Shown piece by piece: positions 5,319 to 45,593 of a stretch of DNA of 64,000 bases. A program made the translations under genes and the position numbers. Each line of letters begins with the position of its first letter. The stretch's first letter is position 1. Location: positions 5,296 through 69,295 of the forward strand of contig CAYZJB010000001.1 in the NCBI GenBank assembly GCA_964478735.1. Reading direction: 5' to 3'. The notes beneath the pieces are model-generated. The model saw only the letters and a list, made by a program, of their open reading frames with translations. It made no database searches and was not told the origin of the DNA. Origin of the DNA: an uncultured Bacteroidota bacterium (lineage in GTDB: Bacteria > CLD3 > SB21).

Positions 5319-8300
5319 ATGAAGTTTGTCAAGATCCTGCGCTGGCTGCTGAAGTTTTTTCTCATCACCGGCATTTCCCTGATCGCGCTGTTTGCCCTCG
5401 TCCTGATCGCACTCCAGACGCCTCCCGCCAAATCGTTGATCAAATCGATCGTCGTCGACCGTGTCAACGAACAGTTAAACGCACGGCTGACGATCGACGA
5501 ACTCGACGGCAACTTCCTGTCGTCGATCGACATTCGCGGCGTCCGGCTCGCGTTCGATGACACGACTCTCGTGTCGCTGGGTTCGATCTCGATCCGTTTT
5601 GACGCACTCGCGGCGCTGGATCGCCGTATTCATATCGAGTCCGTGCACATCGATCGGCCGTATGCCAATGTCCATGTCGATACGGCCGGCGTTCTGAACC
5701 TCAGTCGTATCGCTAAACCGTCGCTGCCCAAACCGCCGGAACCCATCGATTCGACGGCAGAACCGCTCGGAGGATTTGCGCTGGAACTGGACGATTTTGT
5801 CATCGACAGCGGACGGGTGGACGTCCGAACGCCGGGATTCAACGCCCGTATCGAGCGATTTGGAATGGAGTTGAACGCGGATGCCAATGCGGAATTTCAG
5901 AATGTCGCGCTTACGCATTTCGGGTTTGAGATCATTCGCGCGGTCGGAGACTCGTCCGATACGCTGCGGCTGAAAAACTTTTCGGTCATCGCGGGAGCGC
6001 ATGCCTTGCCCCGGTCACCGGCTTACCGCGCAAGGCATCCGGAAGAAAAGGACAGTTTGTGGATCAAACTGGACGAACTGCACCTGCAGACGGATCGAAC
6101 GGACCTGCGCATGCGCGCCGACGTTGCCCTGCCCGACAGTGCTGCCGGTCGATCCCTCGGATACGCGATGAACATCGCCGCTTCACCGATCCACCTCGGA
6201 GAAGTGCGTCGCGTCGTGCCGTTCGGCCTGTCGGCTTTGCGACGGATCGATTTTGAAACGGACATCCGTGGGGACGACAACAGCGTATTTCTTTCGAACC
6301 TGCGGGTCAAAACCGATGCGGGCTCGATCCGGGGTTATGCCGGAATCGATTTCGCCGACGGACCGCTCGGCTATCGTACCGAACTGAATTTTTCCAACGT
6401 CCAGGTCGGCGCTTTCCTGGATCGCCCGGATTTCAACGCCGTCCTCAACGGGCGTTTTTTTGCCGACGGCATCGGAACGAATCCCGACTCCCTGCAGTCC
6501 GACGTTTCGCTCAGCCTGGCGCACTCGACGTTTTTCGGCATCGTCATCGATACGTTCGACATCCGCTCCTATGTCCGCGACGGGATTGCCCACCTGACGC
6601 GCTTCGAGGGCCGAACCAGCGCGGGCGACTGGGATTGCGACGGCTTTTACCGGTTGCGGTCCGAAGAATACCATCTCGTCACGGATTTTCGGGGCATGAA
6701 CGTGGCCGACTTCACGCTCAATCCCGCGCTGAAAAGTTCGATCAATTTGAAACTCGTCGTCGACGGTCAGGGATTGAACCCGCAGACGTCGACCACCCGG
6801 CTGTCGCTGGTATCGGAGTCGTCGACGATCTTCGACCGTACAATCGATAACGTCAGCATCCTGGGATCCAAACAACGGGACCGTATCGTCCTTGAGGATT
6901 TCCGGATCGAGACGCCCGTCGTCGATCTCAATGTCGCCGGTTCCATCGGCCTGGATTCCACCGTCGACATGCATTATGCCGTCAAAACCCGCGACGTCGG
7001 TCTGCTCAAAAAATATACGGGACTGGATTCGCTCCTTCGTGACACCATCAATTTTGAAATGGAGTACAAGGGCGGTGTACGGGGGAGTTACCGTCAACTC
7101 GAAACATCGGGTGAATTGCGTCTTTCCCATTTTATTTTCGGCGATTTCAAAATCGATTCGGTTTTTTTCAGTTATTTCGTCGCCAACATTCTACCGGGCG
7201 AATTGAGCAAGGCGGTCGATTTTCGCTCCATCGACGAAACGATTTACGGCGACGTTTTCATTTACACGCGTACGGTCGACGCCGGTGGCACGACCCTTCG
7301 CGATTTTACGACGTCACTGACCAAGGAACGGCGCAAAACGTTGTTTGAAGTCAGCGGGTACCAGGATCAGACGGACGCGTACGCAAGCCTCAAGGGCAAT
7401 CTCGTCATGCAGGACGAGAACCGGGGGGAACTGCAGCTGGATAATCTGTATCTTCGCATCGCGGGCCGCACGCTCCGAACGCGTGAAGTGAAACTCAACC
7501 TCGGCGGCGAGCCCGTCATCGATTCGACGTACGAGCGATGGAGCGAAGTCTGGGAAAATAGCCGGCCGGTTCAGCTTGCGTTTGACCTGCTTCATCAGCG
7601 ATACGACATCAAACAATTTTCGATGAACATCGGGTCGGGCGTGATGTCCGTGTTCGGCACGATCGACGTCAAGGGGGATCAGAATCTCGACGTCAAAATC
7701 AAAGACCTCAATCTAGCGCGCGCCAACTCGGTCATCGGGTCGGGCGAATCGGTGGTCGAGGGGATCCTCAATCTGAACGCGAGCCTGAAAGGCAACTTTG
7801 AAAAACCGATCATTCTCGCGGACTGGAACATTACGGACGGCAAAGCCACGCAGTTTACGTACGTCAATTTTCTCGGCAACGTTCAATATCTTAACCGCAA
7901 ACTTCAGATGAACATGTCGCTCAATCAGAATGCAGACAAAACGCTGACGATGAGCGGATACCTGCCGATCGACCTGTCCTTCAAGGACGTACCGGATCGA
8001 TTTCCCAACCGTCCGATCAATCTCATCGTTCACTCCGAAGGGATCGATCTGCGGTTTTTGCAGGCGTTTTTCGGAAGAGTGCTGACGCTTCAACGGGGAG
8101 AATTGAAAGTCGATCTGAAGGTCACGGGTAAAAGGGAAACGCCGAAACTCGAAGGAGAATTGAAAATTGAAGACGGGACCGTGACGTTTCCGAAAAGTAC
8201 GCTCGGCCAGACGTTTCGGAACGCGCGTGTTTTTGTCAAACTGACGCCCGAGACGATCTTTGTCGACACCGTTTATCTGCAATCGGGGCGTGACGCGCGG

Positions 8301-9455
8301 TCCAATCTCAAAGCGCGGGCGAAAATCAATCTGGCCGACCTGATGAAAAATTTCGACGTCTCCCGTCTCGATCAGATTTCCTACGACGCCTCGATCGCGT
8401 TCAACGACTTTCAGCCCGTCAATACGAAATCGGAGACGGCGTATCTGCATTCCGCACACCTGACCGGTGACATGCAGGTGTCGGCGTCCTCGTTGTCATT
8501 TCCCGTGGTCAAAGGCGATCTGCAGATCCGCAATTCCGAGATCTGGGTCGTCGATCCGACGAAGGCCAAGGTCGTCACGACCGTTGCTTCGGGTAAGGGC
8601 AGCGCCGTGCAGGATGCCACGGCCGTCAACTATTATCGCAACCTCGATCTCGACGTCTCGATCAGTCTTCCGGATAACACCGAAAATGCGGTCAAGTCGG
8701 CGGAAATGATTTTGTATCTGCTCGGCGACATCCAGGTTGTGAAGCCCTCCGGCAGCGATGATTTTTTCATCTCCGGAAACGTCAGTACCAAACCCGGCGG
8801 GAAATACGCCTACCTCAACGCGGCGTTTACGGTCGAAAAAGGCGACGTTATTTTTGCCGGTGAACCGGGCGTGAATCCGGAGTTGGACATCCTGGCGATC
8901 AAAAAATTCACCTACACGGACGAAGACAAACAGGCGATACCGGCCACGGCGCAGATCCGCGTGACCGGCAAGCTGCTCAAGCCGGAAATTGCCATCACGG
9001 CCGTGCAGCGCGGTACTGACGATCCGATCGACGGATTGACGGAACCCGCGGACATCATTTCCTACATCGTGCTGGGCGTCAAGACGAGCGACCTGGCCAA
9101 AATCGGAGGACAGGCCGGCGACTTCGCCAAGGACGTCGCGATCAATCAGATCCTCAATGCCGTCGCGCGTCAGGGCGGATTTCAGAAACTCGAATACCAG
9201 TCGGGCGGTGACGGCCAGTCCGCCACGATCGCCGTGTCGAAGCAGATTTCCGAAACGGTCTCCGTTTCATTCGAAGGCGGGCTCGATGCCAATTCCGCGC
9301 AAAATCTGACGTTGGAAATAGCCGCCGACTCGCTGGTTCCGGTTTTCCGATCTTGGAAGAAAACGATCGAATTCGAGTTTAAAAAACCGGGCCAGGACGC
9401 GACAAGCGATAAAGATATCATCAACGTGATTTTTTATTTGCGGAAAGAATACTGA
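5319..9455 (+). CDS. tamB: translocation and assembly module protein TamB (AsmA family, C-terminal DUF490)
   Basis: 1378 aa. N-terminal TM anchor MKFVKILRWLLKFFLITGISLIALFALVLIAL; long beta-rich repeat body typical of TamB. Confidence 0.8.
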   Translation: MKFVKILRWLLKFFLITGISLIALFALVLIALQTPPAKSLIKSIVVDRVNEQLNARLTIDELDGNFLSSIDIRGVRLAFDDTTLVSLGSISIRFDALAALDRRIHIESVHIDRPYANVHVDTAGVLNLSRIAKPSLPKPPEPIDSTAEPLGGFALELDDFVIDSGRVDVRTPGFNARIERFGMELNADANAEFQNVALTHFGFEIIRAVGDSSDTLRLKNFSVIAGAHALPRSPAYRARHPEEKDSLWIKLDELHLQTDRTDLRMRADVALPDSAAGRSLGYAMNIAASPIHLGEVRRVVPFGLSALRRIDFETDIRGDDNSVFLSNLRVKTDAGSIRGYAGIDFADGPLGYRTELNFSNVQVGAFLDRPDFNAVLNGRFFADGIGTNPDSLQSDVSLSLAHSTFFGIVIDTFDIRSYVRDGIAHLTRFEGRTSAGDWDCDGFYRLRSEEYHLVTDFRGMNVADFTLNPALKSSINLKLVVDGQGLNPQTSTTRLSLVSESSTIFDRTIDNVSILGSKQRDRIVLEDFRIETPVVDLNVAGSIGLDSTVDMHYAVKTRDVGLLKKYTGLDSLLRDTINFEMEYKGGVRGSYRQLETSGELRLSHFIFGDFKIDSVFFSYFVANILPGELSKAVDFRSIDETIYGDVFIYTRTVDAGGTTLRDFTTSLTKERRKTLFEVSGYQDQTDAYASLKGNLVMQDENRGELQLDNLYLRIAGRTLRTREVKLNLGGEPVIDSTYERWSEVWENSRPVQLAFDLLHQRYDIKQFSMNIGSGVMSVFGTIDVKGDQNLDVKIKDLNLARANSVIGSGESVVEGILNLNASLKGNFEKPIILADWNITDGKATQFTYVNFLGNVQYLNRKLQMNMSLNQNADKTLTMSGYLPIDLSFKDVPDRFPNRPINLIVHSEGIDLRFLQAFFGRVLTLQRGELKVDLKVTGKRETPKLEGELKIEDGTVTFPKSTLGQTFRNARVFVKLTPETIFVDTVYLQSGRDARSNLKARAKINLADLMKNFDVSRLDQISYDASIAFNDFQPVNTKSETAYLHSAHLTGDMQVSASSLSFPVVKGDLQIRNSEIWVVDPTKAKVVTTVASGKGSAVQDATAVNYYRNLDLDVSISLPDNTENAVKSAEMILYLLGDIQVVKPSGSDDFFISGNVSTKPGGKYAYLNAAFTVEKGDVIFAGEPGVNPELDILAIKKFTYTDEDKQAIPATAQIRVTGKLLKPEIAITAVQRGTDDPIDGLTEPADIISYIVLGVKTSDLAKIGGQAGDFAKDVAINQILNAVARQGGFQKLEYQSGGDGQSATIAVSKQISETVSVSFEGGLDANSAQNLTLEIAADSLVPVFRSWKKTIEFEFKKPGQDATSDKDIINVIFYLRKEY

Positions 9456-14933: not shown

Positions 14934-16115
14934 ATGACCACATCAGACGACGTCATTTATCTCGATCATCACGCCACGACTCCCGTCGACCAACGTGTCG
15001 TCGACGCGATGCTCCCGTACTGGACGACCAAGTTCGGCAATGCGGCCAGCCATCACCACCGCCTCGGATGGGAAGCCGAAGAAGCCGTGCGACTCGCCCG
15101 TCAACAGGTGGCGCGCGTCATCGGGGCCGACCCGCGTGATATCGTTTTTACGTCCGGCGCCACCGAATCCAACAACCTGGCGATCAAGGGGGCGGCGGAA
15201 ACATACCGGCGTAAAGGAAATCACATCATCACGTGTGCGACGGAACACAAATGCGTCATTGACGTTGGCAAAGCGCTGGCGGCCAAAGGTTACGATGTGA
15301 CCGTACTTCCCGTGGATCGCGATGGATTTGTCTCCCCGGACGACGTGCGGAGGGCGATCCGGCCGGAAACCATTTTGATTTCGATCATGGCCGCCAACAA
15401 TGAGATCGGCACCCTTCAGCCGGTTCGCGAGATCGGTCGAATGGCGCGCGATCACGGCGTCCTTTTTCATACCGACCTTGCCCAGGCGTTCGGAAAAATT
15501 TCCATTCACGTCGACGACGATTTTATCGATCTCGCGTCCCTATCCGCTCATAAATGCTACGGACCCAAAGGTGTCGGCGCCCTATACGTACGTCGAAAAA
15601 AACCGCGGGTCACGTTGATGCCGCAGATGCACGGCGGCGGGCATGAGGACAACCTGCGCTCCGGTACACTCAACGTTCCCGGCATTGTCGGCTTTGGAAA
15701 AGCGGCCGCCATCGCCGAAGCGGAATGGCAGCAGGATTTCGACCGTACCGCATCCCTTCGGCAGCGCCTGTACGACAAACTGACGGCCTCGTTGTCCGGA
15801 GTGAATTTGAACGGTCCCGACTGGCGGCAGCATGCGTCGCTCGTCCGGCTACCCAACAATCTTAACGTGTCCTTTGAAGGTGTCGATGCCGAAGGATTGA
15901 TCCACGGGCTCAAAAATCTCGCGGTATCTACCGGATCGGCCTGTATGAGCGCCGTCAAAGAGCCATCCTACGTCTTGCGGGCCATCGGCGTGGACGATGC
16001 GCTCGCGCATGCGTCGATCCGTTTCGGGCTGGGCCGTCCGACGACGCAGGACGACATCGATCGTGCCGCGGAACGCATCATTCATGCGGTTCGAACACTT
16101 AGAGGGATTTCATGA
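14934..16115 (+). CDS. iscS: cysteine desulfurase (IscS/NifS, class V aminotransferase)
   Basis: SAHKCYGPKGVGALYVRR PLP-lysine region; SGTLNVPGIVG motif. Confidence 0.85.
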   Translation: MTTSDDVIYLDHHATTPVDQRVVDAMLPYWTTKFGNAASHHHRLGWEAEEAVRLARQQVARVIGADPRDIVFTSGATESNNLAIKGAAETYRRKGNHIITCATEHKCVIDVGKALAAKGYDVTVLPVDRDGFVSPDDVRRAIRPETILISIMAANNEIGTLQPVREIGRMARDHGVLFHTDLAQAFGKISIHVDDDFIDLASLSAHKCYGPKGVGALYVRRKKPRVTLMPQMHGGGHEDNLRSGTLNVPGIVGFGKAAAIAEAEWQQDFDRTASLRQRLYDKLTASLSGVNLNGPDWRQHASLVRLPNNLNVSFEGVDAEGLIHGLKNLAVSTGSACMSAVKEPSYVLRAIGVDDALAHASIRFGLGRPTTQDDIDRAAERIIHAVRTLRGIS

Positions 16116-16915
16116 ATCGGCGCGTCGGAGTTCTGTTGGTGGCGGGACTCGTCATTTCGTGTGGAGGCGATAAACGTGAAGCGGCGCGGCATGAACTGCG
16201 CCGGCTCGGGGTGGAATTTTCGGATAAATCCTATCTGCAGCGCCTGCGCCGCGGCGACGTCATCTTGATCAGCATATTCCTCAACGCGGGCATGGACGCC
16301 AACATGCGATTCACGCGCTCGCTCGATACCACCGCACTCGACGAACTCAATGAATCGACGGCGTTGATGGTCGTGGCGCGTGAAGGACATGCCAAGGCGG
16401 CGCGGCTGCTCATTCGACGAGGTGCGGAAGTGAATGCGAAAGCGGAAAACGGACAAACGGCATTGATGTACGCGGCACGGTACGCACCAAAGGAAACCGT
16501 CACGGAACTGGTCCAGAACGGCGCTCATGTGAACGACAAGGATCGGGACGGCAAATCGGCGTTGACGTTTGCCGTATTGCTCGACCGGCTTGTGATCGTT
16601 CGTACATTGCTGGACGCCGGCGCCGATCCCAACTCCAGGGATCGGTTTCATTTTACTCCGCTTATGCAGGCCGCTCTTAAAGGCAAAACCGACGTTATTC
16701 AACTTCTGCTGGATCATGGTGCCGACGTGGAGGCGGCCAATGCGGAGGGACGAACGCCACTGATGCTTGCAGCAGAATACGGCCGTGCCGCTGCGGTCCG
16801 AGTGCTGCTTGAACGAGGAGCGCGACGGGACGCCGTAACTTCGTCCGGAGAAACGGCGTATTCTCTGGCCATGCAAAAAAACCACGACGATATCGCCCAA
16901 ATGGTAAAAAATTGA
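16112..16915 (+). CDS. ankyrin-repeat lipoprotein
   Basis: Lipobox LVISCGG; at least 5 ankyrin repeats (G-TALM-AA, DKDRDGKSALTFA, GRTPLMLAAEYG...). Confidence 0.75.
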   Translation: MNRRVGVLLVAGLVISCGGDKREAARHELRRLGVEFSDKSYLQRLRRGDVILISIFLNAGMDANMRFTRSLDTTALDELNESTALMVVAREGHAKAARLLIRRGAEVNAKAENGQTALMYAARYAPKETVTELVQNGAHVNDKDRDGKSALTFAVLLDRLVIVRTLLDAGADPNSRDRFHFTPLMQAALKGKTDVIQLLLDHGADVEAANAEGRTPLMLAAEYGRAAAVRVLLERGARRDAVTSSGETAYSLAMQKNHDDIAQMVKN

Positions 16916-19013: not shown

Positions 19014-20348
19014 ATGACGATCCGGATAGTTGGCTGGGTAATGATGCTGGCAGTTGCCGGGCAGGCACAAACGTTTGATGCGAAAGAATTCCGGAACCGG
19101 CGCGATTCGGTATGTGCCGGAATGGGCGACGGCATCGGATTTGTTTTTGCAGGCATTCCTAACGATGCACCGCTCAAATTCCGGCAGGCTCCCGATTTTT
19201 ACTACCTGACCGGAATTGAAGAGCCCTACGCCATTCTGGTGCTTGTCGCCTCCAACCGGTCGTCGTTCCTGTTTGTACCGAAAAAATCCGAAATCCAGAT
19301 TTTCGTTGAAGGGCCGGGCATACTCGAAAAAGAAAATGCGGCAAGTGAATACGGACTGACGGCCGTTCTTTCGCTCGATCAGTTCTGGCCAACGCTGAGT
19401 TATATTGCCGGCAGCTCCCGTCTGTACCTGCCCCTGACGCCGTTGGATAACGTTCACCATGCGCGGGACGAAGCGCGAGGCCAGCAGATCCAGATGCTTT
19501 CCCATCCGTTGCTCGCGTCGGCGACGCCGTATCAGGCGGCGGTAGACAAATTGCGCGCTTTTTTCCCGGAGAAAAGCATACACGATATCAATCCGCTCCT
19601 CGACCGGCTGCGCTGGGTAAAAACGGAATATGAGATCGGCAAACTGCGCTTGTCCGGTAAAATCGGCGCGGAAGGCGTGAGAGAAGCGATCAAAGGAACT
19701 CGACCGGGCATGTACGAATACGAACTCGAAGCCGTCGCTCGATATTATTATGTCAAACGTGGAGCACGAGGCGACGCGTTTTCACCGATTGTGGCGTCCG
19801 GGCCCAATACGGCGACGATTCATTATCAGGGCAACCGCCGACAGATCCAGGCCAATGAAGTCGTGTTAATGGACTACGGCTGCGATTATGATTATTACAC
19901 TTCGGATATCACGCGGGTGTGGCCGTCGTCCGGAAAATTCAGCACCGATGAAGAAAAAATGTACGCGTGTATTCTTGAAGCGCGCCAGGCGATCATCGGT
20001 GCGATGAAACCCGGCGTGACGATCAATCAGCTCAAAGACATTGCCCATGCGGTGTACGTCAAACACGGATTTGCCCAGGAACACCTCGCGTGGGGCAAGT
20101 ACGTCGGTCACACCGTCGGCATTTCCGTTCACGACGTCACACCCTATTCCGATGATACGCCACTGGTTGCCGGAGTCGTATTCAATGTCGAGCCCGTGAT
20201 CGGAAATGCAGCCAAAAAGCTGCACATGCGGTTGGAGGATACCGTCGTGATCACGCCGACGGGGGCGGAAAATCTGACGGCAGATGTCCCGGTTGAACTG
20301 AAAGATATCTATGATCTGGTCAGGCAAAAGGGCCTGGGAGCCAAATAA
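19014..20348 (+). CDS. Xaa-Pro aminopeptidase (M24B family), secreted
   Basis: Signal peptide; aminopeptidase-P N-terminal domain followed by the M24 pita-bread domain (HYQGNRRQIQANEVVLMDYGCDYDYYTSDITR). Confidence 0.82.
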   Translation: MTIRIVGWVMMLAVAGQAQTFDAKEFRNRRDSVCAGMGDGIGFVFAGIPNDAPLKFRQAPDFYYLTGIEEPYAILVLVASNRSSFLFVPKKSEIQIFVEGPGILEKENAASEYGLTAVLSLDQFWPTLSYIAGSSRLYLPLTPLDNVHHARDEARGQQIQMLSHPLLASATPYQAAVDKLRAFFPEKSIHDINPLLDRLRWVKTEYEIGKLRLSGKIGAEGVREAIKGTRPGMYEYELEAVARYYYVKRGARGDAFSPIVASGPNTATIHYQGNRRQIQANEVVLMDYGCDYDYYTSDITRVWPSSGKFSTDEEKMYACILEARQAIIGAMKPGVTINQLKDIAHAVYVKHGFAQEHLAWGKYVGHTVGISVHDVTPYSDDTPLVAGVVFNVEPVIGNAAKKLHMRLEDTVVITPTGAENLTADVPVELKDIYDLVRQKGLGAK

Positions 20349-20456
20349 TAAAGACGTGCAACTATCGCTTGATCGCCTCGTATGTTTACGTGTTTTCAAG
20401 CAACTTCATACACGTATGTCGGTCTGATGATCACACAGAGCAAAGGAGAGTGATCA

Positions 20457-22336
20457 TGAAATCCTTATTATTTCTGCTTTTAACCCTTCTTCTTGTGTCC
20501 AATTCACAAGTTACGGCTCAAGCTCATTTTGACGATGAAGAGCAAGTTTTTGAAAAAACAGACCGGGACGAAGGCTCGATCATTTCTTCTGGCGAAGAAA
20601 AAGCGGACGACTATCTTGACGATGATTTGATCGCCGAAGTGAAAAAACGTTTTCTGGCGGGGTCGGATCGCCTGACGATCGTTCATGGCGATTACGAAAT
20701 GAAAGCCGGACGCCGAACGGACACGGACTTGCTCGTGATCAACGGATCGCTCACCGTCGACGGTACACTGGACGGACATGCGGTCGTGGCCAACGGGAAC
20801 ATTATACTGAAAGAAAGCGGTATTATCACCAAGAATGCCGTGGTCGTCAACGGGAAGATGATCGTTGAAAATTCAGCACAAGTCGAAGGCGACGAGATCC
20901 AGATGGGATGGAGTGATTTACGGGGTCATTCGTCGGAAAAAGTGAAAAAGGCGGAACGGGACGAAGAAAATTGCGATGAACAGTTGACCGATCTGCACGA
21001 CGACATGCAATCCCTCAACAAAGAAATGAGGGACCTGGCGGAGGAGATGAAGAGGCGAAGCGAGGAGATTCGTAATCAGGGACAGGAATTTTCCGCCGCT
21101 TATGCCGAAAGTGAAAATGACCGTTCGGCTTATCGCCATTCATATCGTAACGAATACGATGGCGATGAGGATGAAGAAGCAGAGGACAATGATCGTGCGG
21201 GAAATGTCGACTGGGAGGACCAATGGAACTCGTTTGGATACAAGTCGAAGTACAACAACGATTTTATCGTTTTGCAATACAATCGCGTAAACGGGTTGTT
21301 GCTGGGCGGTAAGCTCGACAAAAATCATCGTTATTTTCGCCGCAAACCGTTCCAGATTTTCGGCCAACTGGCGTATTCGTTCGGTCTGGACCGCGCGGAT
21401 TATCAGTTCGGCGTCAATAAATTTTTCGGGAATCGGTATCGGTTTGAGATCGGCGGAGAATTTCACGATCAACTGCAATCGAACGACGACCGGCTGATCG
21501 GCAACGGGGAAAACACGATCAATGCGCTCCTGTTCAAGCGCGATTTTAAGGATTATTTTCTCGTCGATGGATTCAGCCTTCACGCCGGTCAGAGTTTGAA
21601 TCGACACCTCAAATTGACGGGTACCTATCGCCATGATCGTTACATTTCAGCGGACAATCAGGTCAACTGGGCGCTTTTCCGTCCCACACAGGACTTTCGG
21701 CTGAACCCCGGGATCGACGAAGGACACATGGTGACGGTTGCCGGGCGGGTGGAGTTCAACACGGTTTCCGAAGTACGCATCGGCCGCCGGATTCATAAAC
21801 GCAAAGGCTGGGCGATTGCCGCGGAGGGCGAACGGGGCTTTCGTTCCCTGAATTCCGATTTTCATTTCTCGCGCTATACGGTTGAAGTCGTCCACTATCA
21901 TCCGCTCAGTCGGTGGGAAAATCTGGATACTCGCGTGATGGTGGGTTCTGCGACCGGCGATGTACCGTTGCAAAAATTATTCTACGTCGGCGGGATCAGT
22001 ACGATGCGGGGACACGGTTATAAAGAATTTTCAGGAAACCAGATGGCGCTGGCCAACGTGGAGTATCGCATTCACTCACGGCGTTTTTCCGACGACAGGA
22101 TCTTCTTTATCCATCCGTTCAGCGTCATCCTGTTTGCGGATGCGGGATACGCATGGAACAACGCCATTGATGGTCTGAAAGAGCTGGCCGACGGTGTCCG
22201 GATACGGGACGTGGAAACCGATCTGGGAATAGGATTCGGTGACGAAAAAGATCTTTTCCGGATCGATTTTGCGAAAAATGTTTCCCGGGCCGATAGCGAT
22301 TATAAGATCAATCTCCGATTGAATTACGCATTTTAA
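20457..22336 (+). CDS. Omp85-family outer membrane beta-barrel protein with N-terminal bactofilin-like repeat domain and an acidic coiled-coil linker
   Basis: Signal peptide MKSLLFLLLTLLLVSNSQVTAQA. Repeat LLVINGSLTVDGTLDGHAVVANGNIILKESGIITKNAVVVNGKMIVENSAQVEGDEI. Charged coiled coil with EDNDRAGN acidic stretch. C-terminal FYVGGISTMRGHGY (GG..RG loop-6 motif), NVEYRIH, FADAGYAWNN, terminal NYAF. Confidence 0.6.
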
Positions 22337-22353
22337 TCGTTCGGTTTTGCGAA

Positions 22354-22385
22354 AAAGGGCTGCATGACAGCCCTTTTTCATTTTC
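22354..22385 (+). terminator. rho-independent terminator
   Basis: Stem AGGGCTG / CAGCCCT, loop CATGA, followed by a T-run. Confidence 0.6.
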
Positions 22386-22467
22386 CTAAAAAATTTATTG
22401 CCTCCCTCGGTGAAGGGGCCCAAATTTCATGCATGTTTTTCTTAAGGATGTTTTCAAAGGATATTTC

Positions 22468-24033
22468 ATGAAAATCTGGGTGTTTGGAATTTTCCTGTGG
22501 TTGTTATCCGCGCACGATCCCGCCGTACAGATGGACGACGGGACCATCGAACGTATCCGTACCCAATCGCTCGACAGTTCGTTGGTCATGGATTATTTAT
22601 TCTACCTGACCGAAGCCGTTGGGCCGAGGCTGACCAACTCCACGGGCTATATCCGCGCTTCGCAGTGGGCCGTGCAGGCGCTGAATGAACTGGGATTTCA
22701 ATCGAAACTGGAACCCTATGGGGAATTCGGGCGAGGATGGGATTTGAAGGCGTTTCACGCCACGATGACAAAACCGTACGTCATGCCACTGATCGCTTTT
22801 CCACGGGCGTGGTCTCCGGGAACGAACGGGACGGCGAAAGGACGCGTCGTTTACATTGCCGAAATGGGATTGGACGAGGTGAAACAAAAATGGCAGGGAA
22901 AGTTGAAGGGTAAAATTGTTCTTTTTGGAAAACCCTCGGCCGTCGTGTCGTCGTTTGAAGCTTTTGCATCTCGTTGGACGGACAGTGCGCTGGCGGCGAT
23001 GGCGGGAGATTCGGGAGAAAGCGCGGTATCGTGGCGTGAACAGGCAAGGCGAAGTCCCTGGTATCAGGCGTATCGTGAACGGCAGAAGATTGTTTCATGG
23101 CTCGACTCGCAACAACCGGCCGTGATCATTCAGGGCGGCGACCCTCGCGGCAAAGGCGCTCACGGAACCGTCTTTGTACAGCAGGCCGCGCGGCCCCTCA
23201 AGGAAAATGACGACCCGTTCGCCGACTCGAGTACGCCGATCTATGGAAAACAGTCTCCCCTGCACGCCGCCCAGGTAGCGGTTGCCTCCGAACATTTCAA
23301 CACGATGGCACGACTGGCCGAACATGGAATGGCCGTGGAAATGGAATGCCGTGTCGACGTACAGTTTGTCGATCACGACTTGCAGGGGTATAATGTGATC
23401 GCCGAATGGGAAGGCTCTGATCGTAAAGACGAAGTCGTCATGGTCGGTGCGCACCTGGATTCCTGGCAGAGTTCCACGGGCACGACGGACAATGCCGCCA
23501 ATTGCGCGACGATCATGGAGGCGCTACGAATTCTGAAAACTCTCGGGATCGCACCGCGACGTACGATCCGGCTGATCCTATGGACGGGCGAAGAGCAGGG
23601 ACTCTTCGGATCCAAAGGATACGTGGCCAATCACTTCGGTAACGCGTCGGACAAAAAACCCGGTTTCGACAAACTCATCGCGTATTTCAATCTGGACAAT
23701 GGAGCCGGGCAGATTCGCGGAATCTACGCTGAAAATGACAGGCGCGTAGCGACAACGTTTGCCGAATGGTTACGGCCGTTCAACGATTGGGGTGCCGGTA
23801 CGGTGACGTTAAAATCCGTCGGCTCCACGGATCACGAACCATTTCAAAAAGCCGGTCTGCCGGGGTTTCAGTTTATTCAGGATCCGCTGGATTACCACAC
23901 GCGCACACACCATTCGAATATGGATACGTACGACCGTGTGATCCCTCAGGATGTTAAACGTAATGCGGCTATCGTTGCCTATTTCATCTGGATGGCTGCA
24001 ACATCAGAAAAAAAACTCGCCGAATCGAAATAG
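22468..24033 (+). CDS. M28 family zinc peptidase (aminopeptidase with PA domain), secreted
   Basis: Signal peptide MKIWVFGIFLWLLSA; VVMVGAHLDSW, DNAANCATIMEA and LWTGEEQGLFGS motifs. Confidence 0.8.
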   Translation: MKIWVFGIFLWLLSAHDPAVQMDDGTIERIRTQSLDSSLVMDYLFYLTEAVGPRLTNSTGYIRASQWAVQALNELGFQSKLEPYGEFGRGWDLKAFHATMTKPYVMPLIAFPRAWSPGTNGTAKGRVVYIAEMGLDEVKQKWQGKLKGKIVLFGKPSAVVSSFEAFASRWTDSALAAMAGDSGESAVSWREQARRSPWYQAYRERQKIVSWLDSQQPAVIIQGGDPRGKGAHGTVFVQQAARPLKENDDPFADSSTPIYGKQSPLHAAQVAVASEHFNTMARLAEHGMAVEMECRVDVQFVDHDLQGYNVIAEWEGSDRKDEVVMVGAHLDSWQSSTGTTDNAANCATIMEALRILKTLGIAPRRTIRLILWTGEEQGLFGSKGYVANHFGNASDKKPGFDKLIAYFNLDNGAGQIRGIYAENDRRVATTFAEWLRPFNDWGAGTVTLKSVGSTDHEPFQKAGLPGFQFIQDPLDYHTRTHHSNMDTYDRVIPQDVKRNAAIVAYFIWMAATSEKKLAESK

Positions 24034-30700: not shown

Positions 30701-31030
30701 ATGTTCATCGGTCGGGTGGTCGGTACGGTCTGGGCGACGAAAAAAGTCGATAACGTCAAATCGCTTCGTTTTTTGATGGTACATCCCGTCAATATCGATA
30801 AGGCACCAAACACGAACGTCGTCGTCGTTGCGGACACCCTGGGGGCCGGGATCGGCGAACTGGTGATTGTCTCATACGGACACGCCGCTCGACGGGCATT
30901 GACGACGGAACCGAACGAACTTTCTATCGAGGCCGCCGTGATCGGCATCGTCGATGAAATCGAAGTGGATGAAAAGCTGCTCAAGGGGTTGGAGACCCGT
31001 CGGTTACAACGTGACTTTCCCGATCTGTAG
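30701..31030 (+). CDS. EutN/CcmL/PduN-family (BMC vertex pentamer, Pfam PF03319-like) homolog, orphan
   Basis: MFIGRVVGTVWATKK..LRFLMVHPV, VVVVADTLGAGIGELVIVSYGHAARRAL and AAVIGIVDEIEV align position-by-position with CcmL and EutN. Confidence 0.8.
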   Translation: MFIGRVVGTVWATKKVDNVKSLRFLMVHPVNIDKAPNTNVVVVADTLGAGIGELVIVSYGHAARRALTTEPNELSIEAAVIGIVDEIEVDEKLLKGLETRRLQRDFPDL

Positions 31031-31034
31031 TACC

Positions 31035-33383
31035 ATGGTGCGCGTTTTTTTCATGCTGGCACTGTTCATGTCCTTGCCGATGGCGGCTCAGGAACTACCG
31101 GAGCACCGCTTCCGTAAGGTCTACGTGGATTCCATCGGCGTCTTGTTGGATTCGTTGCCTTCCGCTCAGGACACCGTGTTTGTGAGCGGTCGCGAATACC
31201 ACTTTCGGGGCGTCGATGAGAAGGGTGAGCACACCGGTCTTCGGGTATTTGACGACCTGACGCTGAACCTGTCGCTGCAGGTCGGGGAACAGGAAGAGCG
31301 TGAACTATCGGGGCTTCGCAGGGTGTTCAGCGGCATCGGCAATTTTATCGTCCGAATTGTCACATTAACGCTGGTCAATCCCGGATGGGGTTCGGATCGA
31401 TTTTTTTTCGACCGGGAAATTCTGGAAACCGATTTACGACGGATCCGGCAGCTTTACGAAGGCAAGGGATACTACGAAAGCAGAATTGTCCGGTATCGTG
31501 TGAAATTCGATGACGATTATAAAAACGTCGAAGTGACCCTTGACATTTACGAAGGCCGTCCGGTTCGACTCGTGAACGATCCGGAAATTCGAATCCAATC
31601 GGCCGTTCCGATCATCGATCCGAAAAAAGAATTGACGGACGATGCGCTAAAATCCGTGTTGCCGCTTCGCAAAAACGACCCTCTGGCACGCGATCAGATC
31701 GATTATGCGAAATCCCTGCTGGCGGCACGCCTCAGCCAGAACGGATATCCATCGGCCGATGTCCAGGAAAATATCGACACGACGGGGCTCGGACCCAGAG
31801 AAGCGGTGCTGATGTTCACCGTCATTCCGGGGCGATTTACCGTTTTTGGAGACACCCGGGTTCAAGGTAATTTCTACAAGGCCGACACAACGACCAAAAT
31901 CGTCGATGACGATGTCATCCTGAAGAAAGTTCGTTATAAACCGAACCGGCCGTACGATCCGAACCAGTTATCCCTCAGCATCGGCCAGATCAATGGACTC
32001 GGTGTTTTTCGGACGGTTAAGCCGACCCTCGTACGCCATAAGGGCTCCGTGGATTCTCTGCGTCTGCTTCCGGATTTCGTTCTCGATTCCATTCGATCCG
32101 GATCGGGGAACCGGCTGCATCTCAAACGCGCGGATTACCGGAAATACGGCGTACCCGTAGATACCATTGACGTCGTCATTGCCGTGGCGGAAAAAAAGGA
32201 ACGTTCGATCAAGCCGGGATTGGGTTTTACGAACGACTTTGTCGATTTACCGGAGGACAATAACGCCGTCATTCCCTTTACACGATTCCTCATTTCCTGG
32301 CAAAGCAAAAATTTCCTCGGCGGAGCAAGGAAACTTCAGGTCTCCGGTGAGGTCAGCAAGGGATTCGAGCAAACGGGGCCTTTTTTTGCAAATTACATGC
32401 TGGCCAAAGTAACTTTTCGTCAGCCGTCGTTTCAACTTCCGTTTACGAAAGACGTTAACAACGACTTGGTCACGTCGATCTCGTTTGAACGCAACAGCAC
32501 TCGCGCCTTTGACCTTCGGAAACTGGAAGTCTCCCCGACGTTTTTCCGTCAAATCAGCCAGTCGCTCAGCATGACGCTGACTCCGTTGTCGTTTAGCCGG
32601 GCGACGGAAGTGATTCGTGATGAACCGGATAATAAATTTTTTACCACGAATCAAATGCTCGGGTTCACGTACAACACGAGCAACGATTTTTTCAATCCGA
32701 CGTCGGGCTTTCTCATATACACCAACGGCGATGCGGCCGGTTTCACCCTGCCGAGCGACCGTAAATATTTTAAGTGGACGGTCGATGTCCGACGGTACAT
32801 CGGACTTTCTTCCCGCCTGACGCTGGCGTCGCGGTTTCACGTCGCGTCGGCCATCCCGTACTACGTGGACGGCGTTCGCGCGCAGATTCCCGCAAGCGAG
32901 CAGTTTTACGGCGGCGGGCCGAACAGCATCCGCGGATGGGGAATCCGCGAACTGGCCGTCGTACATGAAACGGCGGACGGACTGGCGTTTTTCGGCGGCA
33001 ATAGTTTGCTCGAGACCGGAATCGAATGTCGATACAACCTCTACATTTCACGAGACCCGAAAGAAGCGATCGGTGGAATGGATCTCGCCGGATTCGTCGA
33101 TGTCGGTAACGTATGGACGGAACATAATTTCAAGAACTTCAAAGACGCCAATGGCAATCGTCTTCCGGCGCAACCGGTAGCGGCCGTCGGCGTCGGCATG
33201 CGAATTCGCACCCTGATCGGACCGGTACGAATCGATTTTGGTTATAAGCTGAAAGATCCGAAAGATTTCAAAGTACTGGATACCTCCACCGATGCACGCG
33301 GCATTGTCGTGCCGATCAGTGCAACACAGGCAAAAAAAATCAACCGGCTTGCCTTCCAGATCACGCTGGGACAGGCCTACTGA
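31035..33383 (+). CDS. BamA/TamA-family Omp85 outer membrane protein (POTRA domains plus 16-strand barrel)
   Basis: Signal peptide MVRVFFMLALFMSLPMAAQE; POTRA-like repeats; FYGGGPNSIRGWG (loop-6 RG motif); GFVDVGNVW; C-terminal aromatic residue. Confidence 0.8.
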   Translation: MVRVFFMLALFMSLPMAAQELPEHRFRKVYVDSIGVLLDSLPSAQDTVFVSGREYHFRGVDEKGEHTGLRVFDDLTLNLSLQVGEQEERELSGLRRVFSGIGNFIVRIVTLTLVNPGWGSDRFFFDREILETDLRRIRQLYEGKGYYESRIVRYRVKFDDDYKNVEVTLDIYEGRPVRLVNDPEIRIQSAVPIIDPKKELTDDALKSVLPLRKNDPLARDQIDYAKSLLAARLSQNGYPSADVQENIDTTGLGPREAVLMFTVIPGRFTVFGDTRVQGNFYKADTTTKIVDDDVILKKVRYKPNRPYDPNQLSLSIGQINGLGVFRTVKPTLVRHKGSVDSLRLLPDFVLDSIRSGSGNRLHLKRADYRKYGVPVDTIDVVIAVAEKKERSIKPGLGFTNDFVDLPEDNNAVIPFTRFLISWQSKNFLGGARKLQVSGEVSKGFEQTGPFFANYMLAKVTFRQPSFQLPFTKDVNNDLVTSISFERNSTRAFDLRKLEVSPTFFRQISQSLSMTLTPLSFSRATEVIRDEPDNKFFTTNQMLGFTYNTSNDFFNPTSGFLIYTNGDAAGFTLPSDRKYFKWTVDVRRYIGLSSRLTLASRFHVASAIPYYVDGVRAQIPASEQFYGGGPNSIRGWGIRELAVVHETADGLAFFGGNSLLETGIECRYNLYISRDPKEAIGGMDLAGFVDVGNVWTEHNFKNFKDANGNRLPAQPVAAVGVGMRIRTLIGPVRIDFGYKLKDPKDFKVLDTSTDARGIVVPISATQAKKINRLAFQITLGQAY

Positions 33384-34657: not shown

Positions 34658-36811
34658 GTGAGCAAAATTTTTTTCGCCATCGGAATTCACAATCATCAGC
34701 CAATCGGGAATTTTGAATTCGTCTTCGATGAGGCCTACCGGAAGGCATACCGGCCATTTGTTGAGCATCTGAAAGACCACACGAATATCCGCGTCGGACT
34801 GCACTACTCCGGTATCTTGCTCGAATGGCTCGATGCCGCGTATCCGGAATTTCTGGACGACGTGAATGAGCTCGTTCAAAAAGGTCAGGTCGAATTGATC
34901 GGCGGTGCCTACTACGAGCCCATTCTCACCATGATTCCACCGCAGGACATCCTGGGTCAGATCGACAAATTGAAATCGTACCTGCAGGACCGATTCAACG
35001 TACGGCCGCGAGGCGCCTGGACGGCGGAACGGGTGTGGGAACCGCATTTGCCGGCCGTCCTGCACGACGCCGGTATCGAGTACACCATTCTGGACGACGT
35101 GCATTTCCGCTATGCCGGTTTAAAACAGTCCGAACTCAACGGGTATTACCGGACCGAAGAAGACGGCAGGCCGGTCAATTTATTTCCTATCCACAAAGAA
35201 CTGCGTTATCTCATACCGTTTCAAAAACCTCAAAAAACGATCGATTACCTTTTGCGGCTGGGTGAGGAAGACCGTGATGTTCTTGCCGTCTTTGCCGACG
35301 ACGGTGAGAAATTCGGAATCTGGCCCAAAACGTACGATCATGTGTATACGGACGGATGGTTGGCAGAATTTTTTTCGTTACTCGGTAAACGTTCCGATTC
35401 GATCGAACTCATCCATTTTTCCGAGGCGATCGACCGTTTTCGTCCACGAGGTCTTGTCTATCTCCCGACGGCCAGCTATACGGAAATGGGACACTGGGCC
35501 CTTCCGGCCGATGACTATGCGCGGTATGAACAATTGACCCGATCGATCACAGACAGCGGCGACCGGGCACTGATCAAGGGCGGGTTCTGGCGTAATTTTT
35601 TCGTGAAGTACCCGGAAGCGAACCACATGCATAAGCGGATGCTCCGACTCAGCCGGCGTATCGCGAGGCTGGGCGTAGAGGACCGACCGAAAGAGCAACG
35701 CGACATGATCCGCGAGGCCGAAAATCATTTATGGGCCGGCCAGTGCAACTGTCCGTACTGGCACGGGGTGTTTGGTGGTTTGTATTTGAACAACCTTCGT
35801 TACCGGATTTACAAAGAACTCTTGCTGGCTGAAAAAATGGCCGACGTCGTCGAATTCGGTGGTCGCCAAGACGCCTGCCGGATCGAGGAAATCGATTTTG
35901 ATTACGACGGACAATCGGAGATACTCGTTGAAACTGCACGCACCAATGTGTATTTTGACCGGCATGGACACGTACTCGAACTCGATTACAAAGACGTCCC
36001 GATGAACGTGACGGACGTTTTGACACGGCGTCGCGAGGGGTACCATCAACAACTGATTGAACAGCGGGAATCGAAAGAACAAAAAGATTCCGAAGAGATC
36101 GAAAGCATTCACGATCGCATCACCAGTAAGGAAAAAGGACTCGAGTCGCGCCTGCATTATGACCGGCGCCGCCGGGTGAGTTACCGGGAACTCTGGTTTG
36201 ACCGTGACATCGACCTGGAGGAAATGGCGAACGGCCAGGCCGAGAGCGACACGGCCATCGATTCGGTGTTTACCAACCACTCGACGTCACGATCGATCGA
36301 CGTTGCATGGACAAGCCGGTTGACCGCAGACGGTCACGAAATTCAGTGTGAAAAACGTTTTTTACTGATGCCCGATGGCGAACTCCAATTGCGCTGTGCG
36401 GTGACCAACCGCGGTACGAGAACTGCGTCGGGTCGTCTGGGTCTTGAGATGAATTTTACTCTGCTGGCCGGTGCAGCCGACGACCGCTATTACGTGATTG
36501 ACGGAATGAAACCGCCGGAGCCGCAGTTAAACAGTTATGGTGAGAGCGAGCATTCCACAAACGTGGCCTTGATTGATGAGTGGCAACGTTTACAAATTGG
36601 ATTACGGTTCGACAGTCCGGCGACGGTGTGGCGCTATCCCGTCGAAACGATCTCACTTTCGGAAGAGGGCTTTGAACGGGTTTATCAGGGGTCGTGCCTG
36701 CTGCCTTTTTGGACGTTGGCACTGAAACCTGGCGAGACATGGCACGTTGAAATAAAAACGCTTATGACAAGAAGCATTTCCTATACGACGGGAGGTCAAC
36801 ATGAAACCTAG
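34658..36811 (+). CDS. glycoside hydrolase family 57 protein (alpha-amylase/4-alpha-glucanotransferase-like) with C-terminal extension
   Basis: IHNHQP and GGAYYEPIL motifs; 717 aa. Confidence 0.75.
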   Translation: MSKIFFAIGIHNHQPIGNFEFVFDEAYRKAYRPFVEHLKDHTNIRVGLHYSGILLEWLDAAYPEFLDDVNELVQKGQVELIGGAYYEPILTMIPPQDILGQIDKLKSYLQDRFNVRPRGAWTAERVWEPHLPAVLHDAGIEYTILDDVHFRYAGLKQSELNGYYRTEEDGRPVNLFPIHKELRYLIPFQKPQKTIDYLLRLGEEDRDVLAVFADDGEKFGIWPKTYDHVYTDGWLAEFFSLLGKRSDSIELIHFSEAIDRFRPRGLVYLPTASYTEMGHWALPADDYARYEQLTRSITDSGDRALIKGGFWRNFFVKYPEANHMHKRMLRLSRRIARLGVEDRPKEQRDMIREAENHLWAGQCNCPYWHGVFGGLYLNNLRYRIYKELLLAEKMADVVEFGGRQDACRIEEIDFDYDGQSEILVETARTNVYFDRHGHVLELDYKDVPMNVTDVLTRRREGYHQQLIEQRESKEQKDSEEIESIHDRITSKEKGLESRLHYDRRRRVSYRELWFDRDIDLEEMANGQAESDTAIDSVFTNHSTSRSIDVAWTSRLTADGHEIQCEKRFLLMPDGELQLRCAVTNRGTRTASGRLGLEMNFTLLAGAADDRYYVIDGMKPPEPQLNSYGESEHSTNVALIDEWQRLQIGLRFDSPATVWRYPVETISLSEEGFERVYQGSCLLPFWTLALKPGETWHVEIKTLMTRSISYTTGGQHET

Positions 36812-45381: not shown

Positions 45382-45593
45382 GTCAATTCCGTGCTAATTA
45401 TATTAAGCATAACGTTAACTGATATAAAGTGTCGAAATCTACTCAAAAATACACGTATTTTGGTATCCTCTGGCTCTGATTTTCATTTTTTTAGTTCACT
45501 TGCCGGAACCTGATCGCCAATAGCGGCCCAATCTTTTTGACTTTGCCGGGAAAGAATTCTAATTTCGTGGCGTTCATCAACACGGAGCCTGTC

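Follow-up and report, generated by a model that had tools for sequence, protein, structure and literature searches.

The outer membrane is built by Omp85 proteins, whose binding partners are determined by their periplasmic domains. POTRA domains bind partners by β-augmentation, and bactofilins, which are treated in the literature as cytoplasmic cytoskeletal proteins, do so by end-on stacking. A total of ten Omp85 subfamilies were described in 2014 by Heinz and Lithgow, among which POTRA domains are typical and not required (PMC4104836). The lid lock of the Omp85 barrel is marked by two motifs, (V/I)RG(Y/F) in loop 6 and (F/G)xDxG in strand 13 (PMC4490367), and strand 1 has its N-terminus in the periplasm in every Omp85 structure solved (PMC4490367, PMC11358297). 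The bactofilin fold is a right-handed β-helix around a triangular core, with three strands to each winding and glycines at the corners (PMC4672760). Full-text searches yielded no paper that contains both 'bactofilin' and 'Omp85', and one incidental mention of the barrel family DUF5686.

Here, we have analyzed a gene whose predicted product carries a bactofilin-type β-solenoid and a charged tether in front of an Omp85-type barrel. The gene lies in a stretch of 64,000 nt, referred to as the window, within which all gene, motif, and neighbor coordinates are numbered. This barrel–solenoid design recurs in uncultured bacteria of the Bacteroidota group and has been neither described nor studied before.

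Gene structure and genomic context

The features of the gene and of its product are collected in Table 1. The ATG at 20456-20458 is the likely start codon, having a Shine-Dalgarno-like site 7 bases upstream, and the start proposed in an earlier, sequence-only reading (20457) is therefore one base late; the end given there, 22336, is correct, with the stop codon included. Homologues are 45-97% identical to the 626-aa protein and cover 91-100% of it (E down to 0), and 123 columns are invariant in an alignment of 10 family sequences; thus, the open reading frame is not a product of chance. The clean intrinsic terminator that had been reported downstream is borne out by a 12-bp hairpin with a T-rich tail, which begins 15 bases after the stop codon. 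Upstream, an M24 peptidase gene is 107 bases away, and the barrel–solenoid gene may be co-transcribed with it rather than being monocistronic.

Table 1. Features of the barrel–solenoid gene, its product, and related genes in the window
Feature	Position in window	Strand	Residues	Details or basis
Open reading frame	20369..22336	+		Contains the gene
Coding sequence	20456..22336	+	626 aa + stop	ORF, Shine-Dalgarno site, translation, homologues
Shine-Dalgarno-like site AAGGAG	20443..20448	+		7 nt before ATG; read directly from sequence
Sec signal peptide	20456..20518	+	1-21	MKSLLFLLLTLLLVSNSQVTA; translation, family alignment
Acidic leader	20519..20617	+	22-54	36% Asp+Glu; weakly conserved; predicted disordered
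Conserved N-terminal helix before solenoid	20618..20659	+	55-68	Family motif ExxK(Y/F)L
Bactofilin-type β-solenoid	20660..20911	+	69-152	AF2 domain model, profiles, relatives
Variable charged tether	20912..21241	+	153-262	110 residues
Predicted charged α-helix in tether	20972..21079	+	173-208	36 residues; AF2 DSSP
Omp85-superfamily (DUF5686-type) β-barrel	21242..22333	+	263-626	364 aa
Loop-6 lid motif GGISTMRG	21989..22012	+	512-519	R518, G519 invariant
Strand-13 motif FADAG = (F/G)xDxG	22133..22147	+	560-564	F560, D562, G564 invariant
Intrinsic terminator hairpin	22351..22379	+		12 pairs, 6 G-C; loop of 5; T-rich tail
TamB gene	5319-9455			Same window
POTRA-bearing BamA-like gene	30954-33383			Same window

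The two companion Omp85-related genes that the sequence-only reading had placed in the window, encoding TamB and a BamA-like protein, are both present. TamB and other neighbors recur only at the locus of one relative, which is 64% identical (L001), and clustering of the ORFs from 11 loci and the window revealed no shared conserved neighbor. In addition, no second solenoid-domain ORF was found within the 64-kb window.

Signal peptide, leader, and tether

Cleavage of the signal peptide by signal peptidase I is expected between VTA and QA, on the grounds of the sequence and the Q-rule rather than of a dedicated predictor. The signal peptide contains no lipobox Cys. Q22 is almost invariant in the family alignment, and together with the signal peptide it matches the Q-rule of Bacteroidetes (PMC5837995). 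Judging by its sequence, the gene product is a Sec-exported outer-membrane protein. The helix that precedes the solenoid corresponds to residues 2-12 of the AF2 domain model and is conserved in family alignments.

The highly charged, Glu/Asp-rich segment noticed earlier is found in the tether, which contains 31% Asp+Glu and has a net charge of -19. Neither its length nor its sequence is conserved among family members. As to the coiled coil proposed for this segment, the only helix predicted in the tether was modeled by AF2 at low confidence (pLDDT about 55-60), and matches of the protein to coiled-coil families in Pfam are weak (E 0.017-0.18). The 55 residues directly before the barrel are disordered in the AF2 model and unconserved in the 10-sequence alignment.

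Identification of the Omp85-type barrel

All the barrel motifs picked out in the sequence-only reading were recovered, namely GGISTMRG at residues 512-519, VEYR at 535-538, DAGYAW at 562-567, and the terminal NYAF, of which F626 is the last residue of the protein; the barrel itself begins with a conserved YNRVxG motif. Loop 6 reads M-R518-G519-H within GGISTMRGHGY, in which R and G align with the RGF of BamA and the flanking positions deviate from (V/I)RG(Y/F), with M for V/I and H for Y/F. The strand-13 FADAG aligns with FWDMG of BamA. The assignment to the Omp85 type is upheld by Pfam Omp85 (PF01103; score 39.3 bits, threshold 24), by a profile match to BamA of F. nucleatum among solved structures (1.9e-13; E. 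coli BamA, about 5e-8), and by the invariant lid-lock residues. The protein also matches Pfam DUF5686 (PF18939; score 43.5 bits, threshold 39.2), and all 10 family members match both families. Since the DUF5686 match (aa 260-497, the first two-thirds of the barrel, YNRVxG included) covers only positions 326-574 of the 669 in the profile, the protein is a DUF5686 member for its barrel part alone.

The barrel aligned with the BamA of the same window with 97% probability in hhalign. In Foldseek, every one of the top 50 matches is a 16-strand BamA/TamA barrel, with E-values between 1.5e-9 and 4e-7 and TM-scores no higher than 0.43. The full-length AF2 model, built from the 10-sequence alignment, has a mean pLDDT of 52, with the barrel at low confidence (about 30-75); in this low-confidence model, DSSP assigned 15 clear strands and one marginal strand, with three strands after the strand-13 motif, the number that a 16-strand barrel would have there.

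No POTRA domain (PF07244) was matched by Pfam in the protein even at E<=10, and the proposed replacement of POTRA holds, with the solenoid being found instead. The linker was also considered as the site of a cryptic POTRA, which was rejected, as there is no Pfam match and AF2 predicts only helix and disorder between the solenoid and the barrel. The NCBIfam equivalog for BamA (NF058613) gave 18.4 bits where 1050 are required, with only the last 135 residues matching. On these scores, the gene appears to be an accessory paralogue and not the BamA of the cell, which is encoded by the POTRA-bearing gene of the same window.

Kinship of the solenoid with bactofilins

The solenoid was modeled by AF2 as a separate domain with a pLDDT of 88 and a pTM of 0.80. 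The model has about four windings (aa 73-146) and a partial fifth, with 18-19 aa and three short strands in each winding, and six corner glycines (G97, G103, G107, G114, G122, and G133) are invariant. The repeat quoted in the sequence-only reading, LLVINGSLTVDG...VEGDEI, is present at residues 92-148.

The claim that this repeat is bactofilin-like stood at the level of the family and failed for the query alone, which scores 11.1 bits against Pfam Bactofilin (PF04519/DUF583), below the cut-off of 27.9 (E 0.51), and has weak Pfam matches to FapA and DGF-1. Only one of 10 close family members matches Bactofilin at all, and the consensus of the query's own clade has no Bactofilin match, this clade having diverged below the Pfam threshold. 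By contrast with the query alone, the consensus of 48 barrel-fused solenoid domains scores 38.4 bits (E 1.5e-9) against Bactofilin, with no competing family, and the top match of the 48-sequence profile among solved structures is the bactofilin of Thermus (T. thermophilus, 6ria, E 5e-4). Four fused relatives (P0013, P0014, P0026, and P0040) score 40-47.5 bits against Bactofilin and match the solenoid profile of the query clade at 1e-25 to 5e-11. Among 102 non-barrel relatives of the solenoid, 49 likewise match Bactofilin, against one that matches Hexapep (8e-4) and one that matches FapA. Homology of the N-terminal repeat to the bactofilin domain is thereby supported by sequence comparison, through the family only and not through the query itself.

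Searches of solved structures by sequence with the full protein or the narrow clade profile returned no bactofilin, only chance helical or β-helix matches, and a word-indexed search with an 8-sequence solenoid alignment returned no relatives, which reflects the sensitivity limit of the tool. An exhaustive profile search with the solenoid gave 881 clusters at E<=1e-3. Foldseek with the domain model gave no significant match (bactofilin 6rib ranks 24th, E 0.36). A generic LbH fold, named earlier as the alternative to be checked, was rejected: the query has no Pfam match to Hexapep (PF00132), the single Hexapep match stands among 102 relatives, and no LbH acyltransferase occurs among the top 50 fold matches, the better of which are all right-handed helices. 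None of the findings that the sequence-only reading had named as refuting it was obtained.

Distribution of the fusion

Of the 93 proteins that carry this barrel, 82 also have the solenoid. The barrel is carried by 51 of the 157 proteins found through the solenoid, and a search with the barrel added 41 proteins, 31 of them with the solenoid. The fused proteins come from metagenome-assembled genomes of Bacteroidota, KSB1, Calditrichota, and Eisenbacteria, and this barrel, of the DUF5686 type, is confined, as far as seen, to lineages of the FCB group. The architecture had been called atypical; it does differ from the described Omp85 classes, but it is recurrent and not unique. In pipeline annotations, some of these proteins go under 'BamA/TamA family' and others under 'CcmA (bactofilin family)', and either name covers only half of the protein.

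Relatives with only the solenoid and relatives with only the barrel both exist. Barrel-less relatives of the solenoid mostly start with Sec signal peptides, so the solenoid exists as an extracytoplasmic module by itself, and no T9SS tail was found in them with Pfam. Some fused proteins contain two to three solenoids in tandem, and some relatives have glucan-binding modules (CBM48/X25) inserted between the solenoid and the barrel. N-terminal regions are acidic (median -5 per 100 aa), and many short linkers are rich in Lys/Arg. The length of the linkers did not discriminate between topologies, because all of them have at least 34 aa.

Possible role and topology

The reading that we prefer, to which we would give an even chance, is that of an Omp85 paralogue that lacks POTRA and has a β-solenoid docking module in the periplasm, a tether, and a lid-locked barrel. 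A cytoplasmic solenoid would be at odds with the Sec signal peptide and with the fusion to an outer-membrane barrel, and since strand 1 of Omp85 proteins has a periplasmic N-terminus, the solenoid would most likely be in the periplasm. The Sec signals of most barrel-less relatives also favor this placement. By analogy with POTRA, whose position it would occupy, it may hang there as a protein-docking module, with its exposed β-edges and flat faces taking a partner or substrate. The tether would determine how far the solenoid extends, with the barrel supplying a membrane core of the Omp85 type.

Several observations run against parts of this model. The tether, with at least 34 residues in 82 of 82 fused proteins, is long enough to thread the barrel, and CBM48/X25 inserts occur in some relatives; both speak against the periplasmic placement. 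Glucan-binding modules of the CBM48/X25 type are typical of surface proteins. Against docking, there is no conserved neighbor gene suggesting a partner. The full-length model, from which the topology might be read, has a low mean pLDDT. Against the bactofilin part stand the sub-threshold Pfam score of the query and the lack of a significant Foldseek match for its domain model.

Surface display seems rather unlikely to us. In this type V-like reading, the solenoid (and the CBMs in relatives) would be a passenger that leaves the cell through its own barrel or beside it, the tether would stay in the pore, and the solenoid would be an external adhesin or a glycan- or surface-binding module. Such export would suit the domain order of signal peptide, β-helix, charged/helical linker, and C-terminal barrel, which resembles autotransporters, as well as the ability of Omp85-type barrels to export N-terminal passengers, exemplified by PlpD (PMC4104836), and the threading of the barrel by the H1 helix of FhaC (PMC4490367). 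The linker that is never shorter than 34 aa, the acidic N-terminal regions, and the CBM48/AMPK1_CBM/X25 modules of relatives also favor it. However, both known types of Omp85-dependent export, Vb and Vd, have POTRA, whereas the present protein does not; its barrel is closest to BamA and not to TpsB/ShlB, with PF03865 recorded in one of 49 relatives; many short linkers abound in Lys/Arg; and strand 1 is preceded by disordered, unconserved residues rather than by a conserved helix.

The homology of the solenoid to a polymer-forming domain brings up another function, in which the solenoid would have kept the polymerising ability of bactofilins and would assemble end-to-end, either on its own or jointly with free bactofilin-like proteins that are secreted. 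The barrel would then tie this extracytoplasmic bactofilin-type polymer to the outer membrane, as its anchor or nucleator. The many relative clusters, most with Sec signals, and the tandem solenoids are in line with it, but the solenoid has only about 4 windings compared with 6 in BacA (PMC4672760), the conserved helix before the first winding may cap that end, and no second solenoid gene lies in the window or is conserved beside the gene. We consider this function improbable. It is very unlikely that the repeat is unrelated to bactofilin, be it a generic LbH, another β-helix, or a chance Gly/Val-rich repeat: the weak matches of the query, the silence of its clade consensus, the non-bactofilin structures that best match the clade profile, and the lack of a significant Foldseek match would fit, but they are set against a wider fused-domain consensus above the Bactofilin cut-off, the Bactofilin matches of nearly half of the relatives, the top solved structure of the 48-sequence profile, the right-handedness of the better fold matches, and a conserved domain with invariant corner glycines. 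Finally, the joining of a secreted solenoid gene and a noNterm Omp85 gene by an assembly or frameshift error is hardly credible and was discarded in view of the conserved fused architecture; the linker is of low complexity and variable, and the two halves do occur apart, but the identical fused frame is present in 82 proteins from independent assemblies in at least four phylum-level lineages.

Significance

With POTRA swapped for a bactofilin-type β-helix, this conserved subfamily adds an eleventh architecture to the ten of 2014 and provides a natural experiment on the abilities of a POTRA-less Omp85 barrel. Most members of the large bactofilin-family branch that includes the solenoid (881 clusters) bear signal peptides, and, given that bactofilins are seen as cytoplasmic, an extracytoplasmic branch would broaden the known uses of the fold. 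If the polymer-anchor function were true, a periplasmic or cell-surface 'cytoskeleton' would be tied to an Omp85 barrel and shared with many signal-peptide-bearing bactofilin-like proteins of the same phyla. The host organisms are uncultured, which limits immediate testability.

Comparison with known systems

With BamA and TamA, the protein shares barrel homology, lid-lock motifs, and the C-terminal aromatic residue, whereas it lacks POTRA, falls far below the BamA equivalog cut-off, has a separate BamA in the window, and is linked to tamB in one close relative only. Type V systems (Va autotransporters and Vd PlpD) have the same linear order, and the Vd barrel is also of the Omp85 type; in contrast, no 12-strand autotransporter barrel, patatin domain, or POTRA was detected here with Pfam. 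The non-POTRA Omp85 proteins (noNterm, Metallo-Omp85, WD40-Omp85, and patatin-like PlpD; PMC4104836) and the noNterm paralogues of Leptospira (PMC11358297) are likewise accessory to a canonical BamA. In them, as here, POTRA is absent or swapped for another domain, and their functions are at most hypothesised. The present protein differs by its DUF5686-type barrel and by its N-terminal domain, since a β-helical or bactofilin-type domain at this end is absent from all ten described subfamilies.

The DUF5686 proteins of Bacteroidota have the same barrel region, including the YNRVxG start, and their N-terminal half (model positions 1-325) is replaced here by the solenoid and the tether. Bactofilins such as BacA of C. 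crescentus (2N3D), the T. thermophilus protein (6RIA), and CcmA of H. pylori (PMC4672760) share with the solenoid a homologous β-helical repeat, each winding of which has three strands and glycines at its corners. They are cytoplasmic, whereas the present solenoid is predicted to be exported by a Sec signal peptide, and in place of the six windings of BacA (PMC4672760) it has about 4, preceded by a conserved helix. Unlike bactofilins, it forms a single polypeptide with an outer-membrane barrel.

Gene and genomic context

A sequence-only reading had placed the target gene at 20457-22336; the end was right, whereas the start lay one base late, in a frame full of stops. Read from its likely ATG (see table), the gene encodes 626 residues, in which all the quoted motifs were found (Gly/Val-rich repeat at 92-148, GGISTMRG at 512-519, VEYR at 535-538, DAGYAW at 562-567 and the terminal F626), and the proposed intrinsic terminator is present. 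Judged by homology, the gene is genuine, because nine homologues at 45-97% identity, with coverage mostly >90% of the protein, have 123 invariant columns in common with it. Gln22 is nearly invariant and directly follows the predicted signal-peptide cleavage site (between VTA and QA), and many relatives have AQ or GQ at the same place. According to the Bacteroidetes Q-rule, an N-terminal Gln left by signal-peptide cleavage becomes pyroglutamate (PMC5837995), and the near-invariance of Gln22 is consistent with this rule.

The surroundings are those of an ordinary chromosome. Of the four peptidase genes in the window, those of M24 and M28 flank the target gene; at L001, the locus of a relative with 64% identity, an S9 peptidase stands downstream instead of M28. 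TamB is followed by TatD, and no gene for an Omp85 partner lies next to TamB. The order TamB, TatD, efflux set, DUF4440 gene and target gene is the same at L001, the sole locus among those compared with TamB near the target relative, and is absent from more distant loci. ORF comparison of the family loci found no neighbouring gene conserved across the fusion family, and no second solenoid ORF was found in the window. The 267-aa ankyrin protein, nearly all repeats (Ank_2, 5.3e-70), has a homologue with 57% identity at L005, another relative's locus.

Features of the window (positions in nucleotides)
Feature	Position	Strand	Remark
TamB	5319-9455
Ankyrin protein	16112-16915
M24 peptidase (aminopeptidase P-like)	19014-20348		directly upstream of target gene
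Target ORF	20369-22336	+	
Likely start ATG of target gene	20456	+	AAGGAG at 20443-20448, 7 bases before
Gln22 codon	20519-20521
YNRVNG	21278-21295		aa 275-280, within part matching DUF5686
Intrinsic terminator	22351-22379		12-pair hairpin, T-rich tail
M28 peptidase	22429-24033		directly downstream of target gene
POTRA-bearing BamA-like gene	30954-33383
S41 peptidase with PDZ	36801-38369
M20 peptidase	45537-47129
535-aa ORF	61004-62611	-	no Pfam match at E<=1e-5
TatD, TolC-like OEP, DinB and DUF4440 proteins			further neighbours

The C-terminal barrel

The query protein exceeds the Pfam cut-offs for Omp85 (39.3 bits vs 24) and DUF5686 (43.5 vs 39.2), and both models match 10/10 family members. 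A profile built from 18 diverse barrels matched the solved structures of Fusobacterium BamA (1.9e-13), many E. coli BamA entries (approximately 5e-8) and TamA (0.0095), with the query's RG aligned on the BamA RGF motif and its FADAG on FWDMG, while hhalign against the window's BamA gave 97% probability across the C-terminal half. The Omp85 lid lock comprises two signature motifs, (V/I)RG(Y/F) on loop 6 and (F/G)xDxG on strand 13 (PMC4490367); the query has M-R518-G519-H and F560-A-D562-A-G564, whose R, G, F, D and G are invariant in the family alignment. Together, these Pfam, structural, hhalign and motif data uphold the C-terminal Omp85 barrel proposed earlier. BamA itself was ruled out as the query's identity (equivalog model 18 bits vs cut-off 1050).

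The full-length AF2 model is poor (mean pLDDT 52), yet BamA/TamA barrels make up all of its 50 best Foldseek matches in the PDB (E 1.5e-9 to 4e-7). DSSP of this low-confidence model counts 15 clear strands and one marginal, with three strands after the strand-13 motif, which agrees with 16 strands, short of proof. The barrel opens with a YNRV(D/E/N)G motif, which hardly varies throughout the fusion family.

The N-terminal solenoid

No Pfam match to POTRA was obtained in the query at E<=10. A bactofilin-like repeat in its place, as previously suggested, could not be confirmed from the query alone (Bactofilin 11.1 bits, E 0.51, with equally weak matches to FapA and DGF-1), but is borne out by its family. 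Among 102 barrel-less solenoid relatives, 49 match Pfam Bactofilin at E<=1e-3 (best 2.9e-14), and FapA, DUF4097 and Hexapep are matched by just one each. Four fused relatives lie above the Bactofilin cut-off (P0013, 47.5; P0014, 42.9; P0040, 41; P0026, 40 bits). A consensus derived from 48 barrel-fused solenoids reaches 38.4 bits (E 1.5e-9), and no other family competes for it; one derived from the query's own clade has no Bactofilin match. Against all solved-structure sequences, the 48-sequence profile found Thermus bactofilin 6ria as top match (E 5e-4) and BacA 2n3d at E 0.66. From these family-level matches, the solenoid is therefore assigned to the bactofilin (DUF583) beta-helix family as a diverged member, an assignment that does not extend to polymerisation. 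The same evidence ruled out a hexapeptide LbH.

When residues 55-152 were modelled alone, AF2 predicted a confident fold (pLDDT 88, pTM 0.80) with a helix and then approximately four windings, each 18-19 residues long and made up of three short strands; the corner glycines G97, G103, G107, G114, G122 and G133 show little or no variation. In the published BacA core, six windings enclose a triangular interior, and each consists of three strands with glycine corners (PMC4672760); the query model resembles this in strands and corners but has fewer windings.

An exhaustive search with the clade's solenoid alignment returned 881 cluster representatives at E<=1e-3 (38 at E<=1e-10), so that the solenoid belongs to a large bactofilin-like branch. 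Most members inspected start with Sec signal peptides, and some relatives are giants (e.g., P0015, 3656 aa; P0103, 4971 aa; P0028, 1796 aa), certain of them with 11-15 copies. No extracytoplasmic bactofilin-like family of such size was found in the literature searched.

The linker

The supposed acidic coiled-coil linker stands as regards charge (residues 153-262: 31% Asp+Glu, net charge -19), whereas for the coiled coil there are weak family matches (E 0.017-0.18) and a single 36-residue helix (173-208) predicted by AF2 at low confidence, the remainder being predicted as disordered; we consider an E/K/R-rich single-helix spacer just as plausible as a coiled coil. Both length and sequence are unconserved in the family alignment. 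In 82 fused proteins, at least 34 residues (median 57) separate the last winding from the YNRV motif, and the query's 110-residue tether is at the long extreme.

Distribution of the fusion

The same barrel was present in 51/157 solenoid proteins then collected, and a search begun from the barrel found the solenoid in 31/41 further relatives. Overall, 82/93 proteins with a near-complete barrel carry one (64), two (10) or three (8) solenoids, near-identical cluster members included. The sources are MAGs labelled Bacteroidota, Ignavibacteriae, candidate division KSB1, Calditrichota and Candidatus Eisenbacteria, and pipelines name the proteins "BamA/TamA family outer membrane protein" or "cytoskeletal protein CcmA (bactofilin family)". 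Solenoid-less members of the 41 are approximately 470-aa proteins with only a short poly-acidic leader before the same barrel, one CBM48 protein and one distant POTRA-bearing protein (26% identity); P0193, P0196-P0198, P0200 and P0210 are such exceptions. Such relatives point to an exchange of modules at the N-terminus of the barrel. In P0026, P0027, P0040 and P0209, one to three CBM48/AMPK1_CBM/X25 glucan-binding modules lie between solenoid and barrel or replace the solenoid, hinting that the N-terminal region may contact polysaccharide, possibly outside the cell.

Topology and possible function

The query is an outer-membrane protein exported through Sec; its Omp85-type barrel keeps the lid lock intact, and where POTRA would be there is a bactofilin-type solenoid carried on a variable tether. 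We give about an even chance to the solenoid lying in the periplasm, where it would act as a docking module in place of POTRA; this is the most probable placement because every known Omp85 structure has the N-terminal end of strand 1 on the periplasmic side (PMC4490367, PMC11358297) and free solenoid relatives mostly have Sec signals and show no T9SS tails in Pfam. The main rival, type V-like surface display of the solenoid, is suggested by the domain order, by linkers that are always 34 residues or longer, by acidic N-regions and by the CBM48/X25 modules that relatives carry, and we regard it as rather unlikely. Less likely than either, and quite improbable, is an outer-membrane-anchored extracytoplasmic bactofilin polymer, against which stand a solenoid of just four windings and the conserved helix preceding the first.

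Comparison with known systems

A full-text literature search found no paper with both "bactofilin" and "Omp85", and DUF5686 had one incidental mention only. The noNterm paralogues of Leptospira are a precedent for accessory Omp85s that lack POTRA and are important in vivo (PMC11358297). The sequence-only reading was essentially correct in observation and interpretation: the query protein is an Omp85 whose N-terminal domain departs from the usual one, an architecture that, from the sequences collected, is conserved across FCB-group lineages. Its beta-helical N-terminus distinguishes it from all ten Omp85/TpsB subfamilies defined by Heinz and Lithgow, which include the non-POTRA forms WD40, metallo, patatin and noNterm (PMC4104836).
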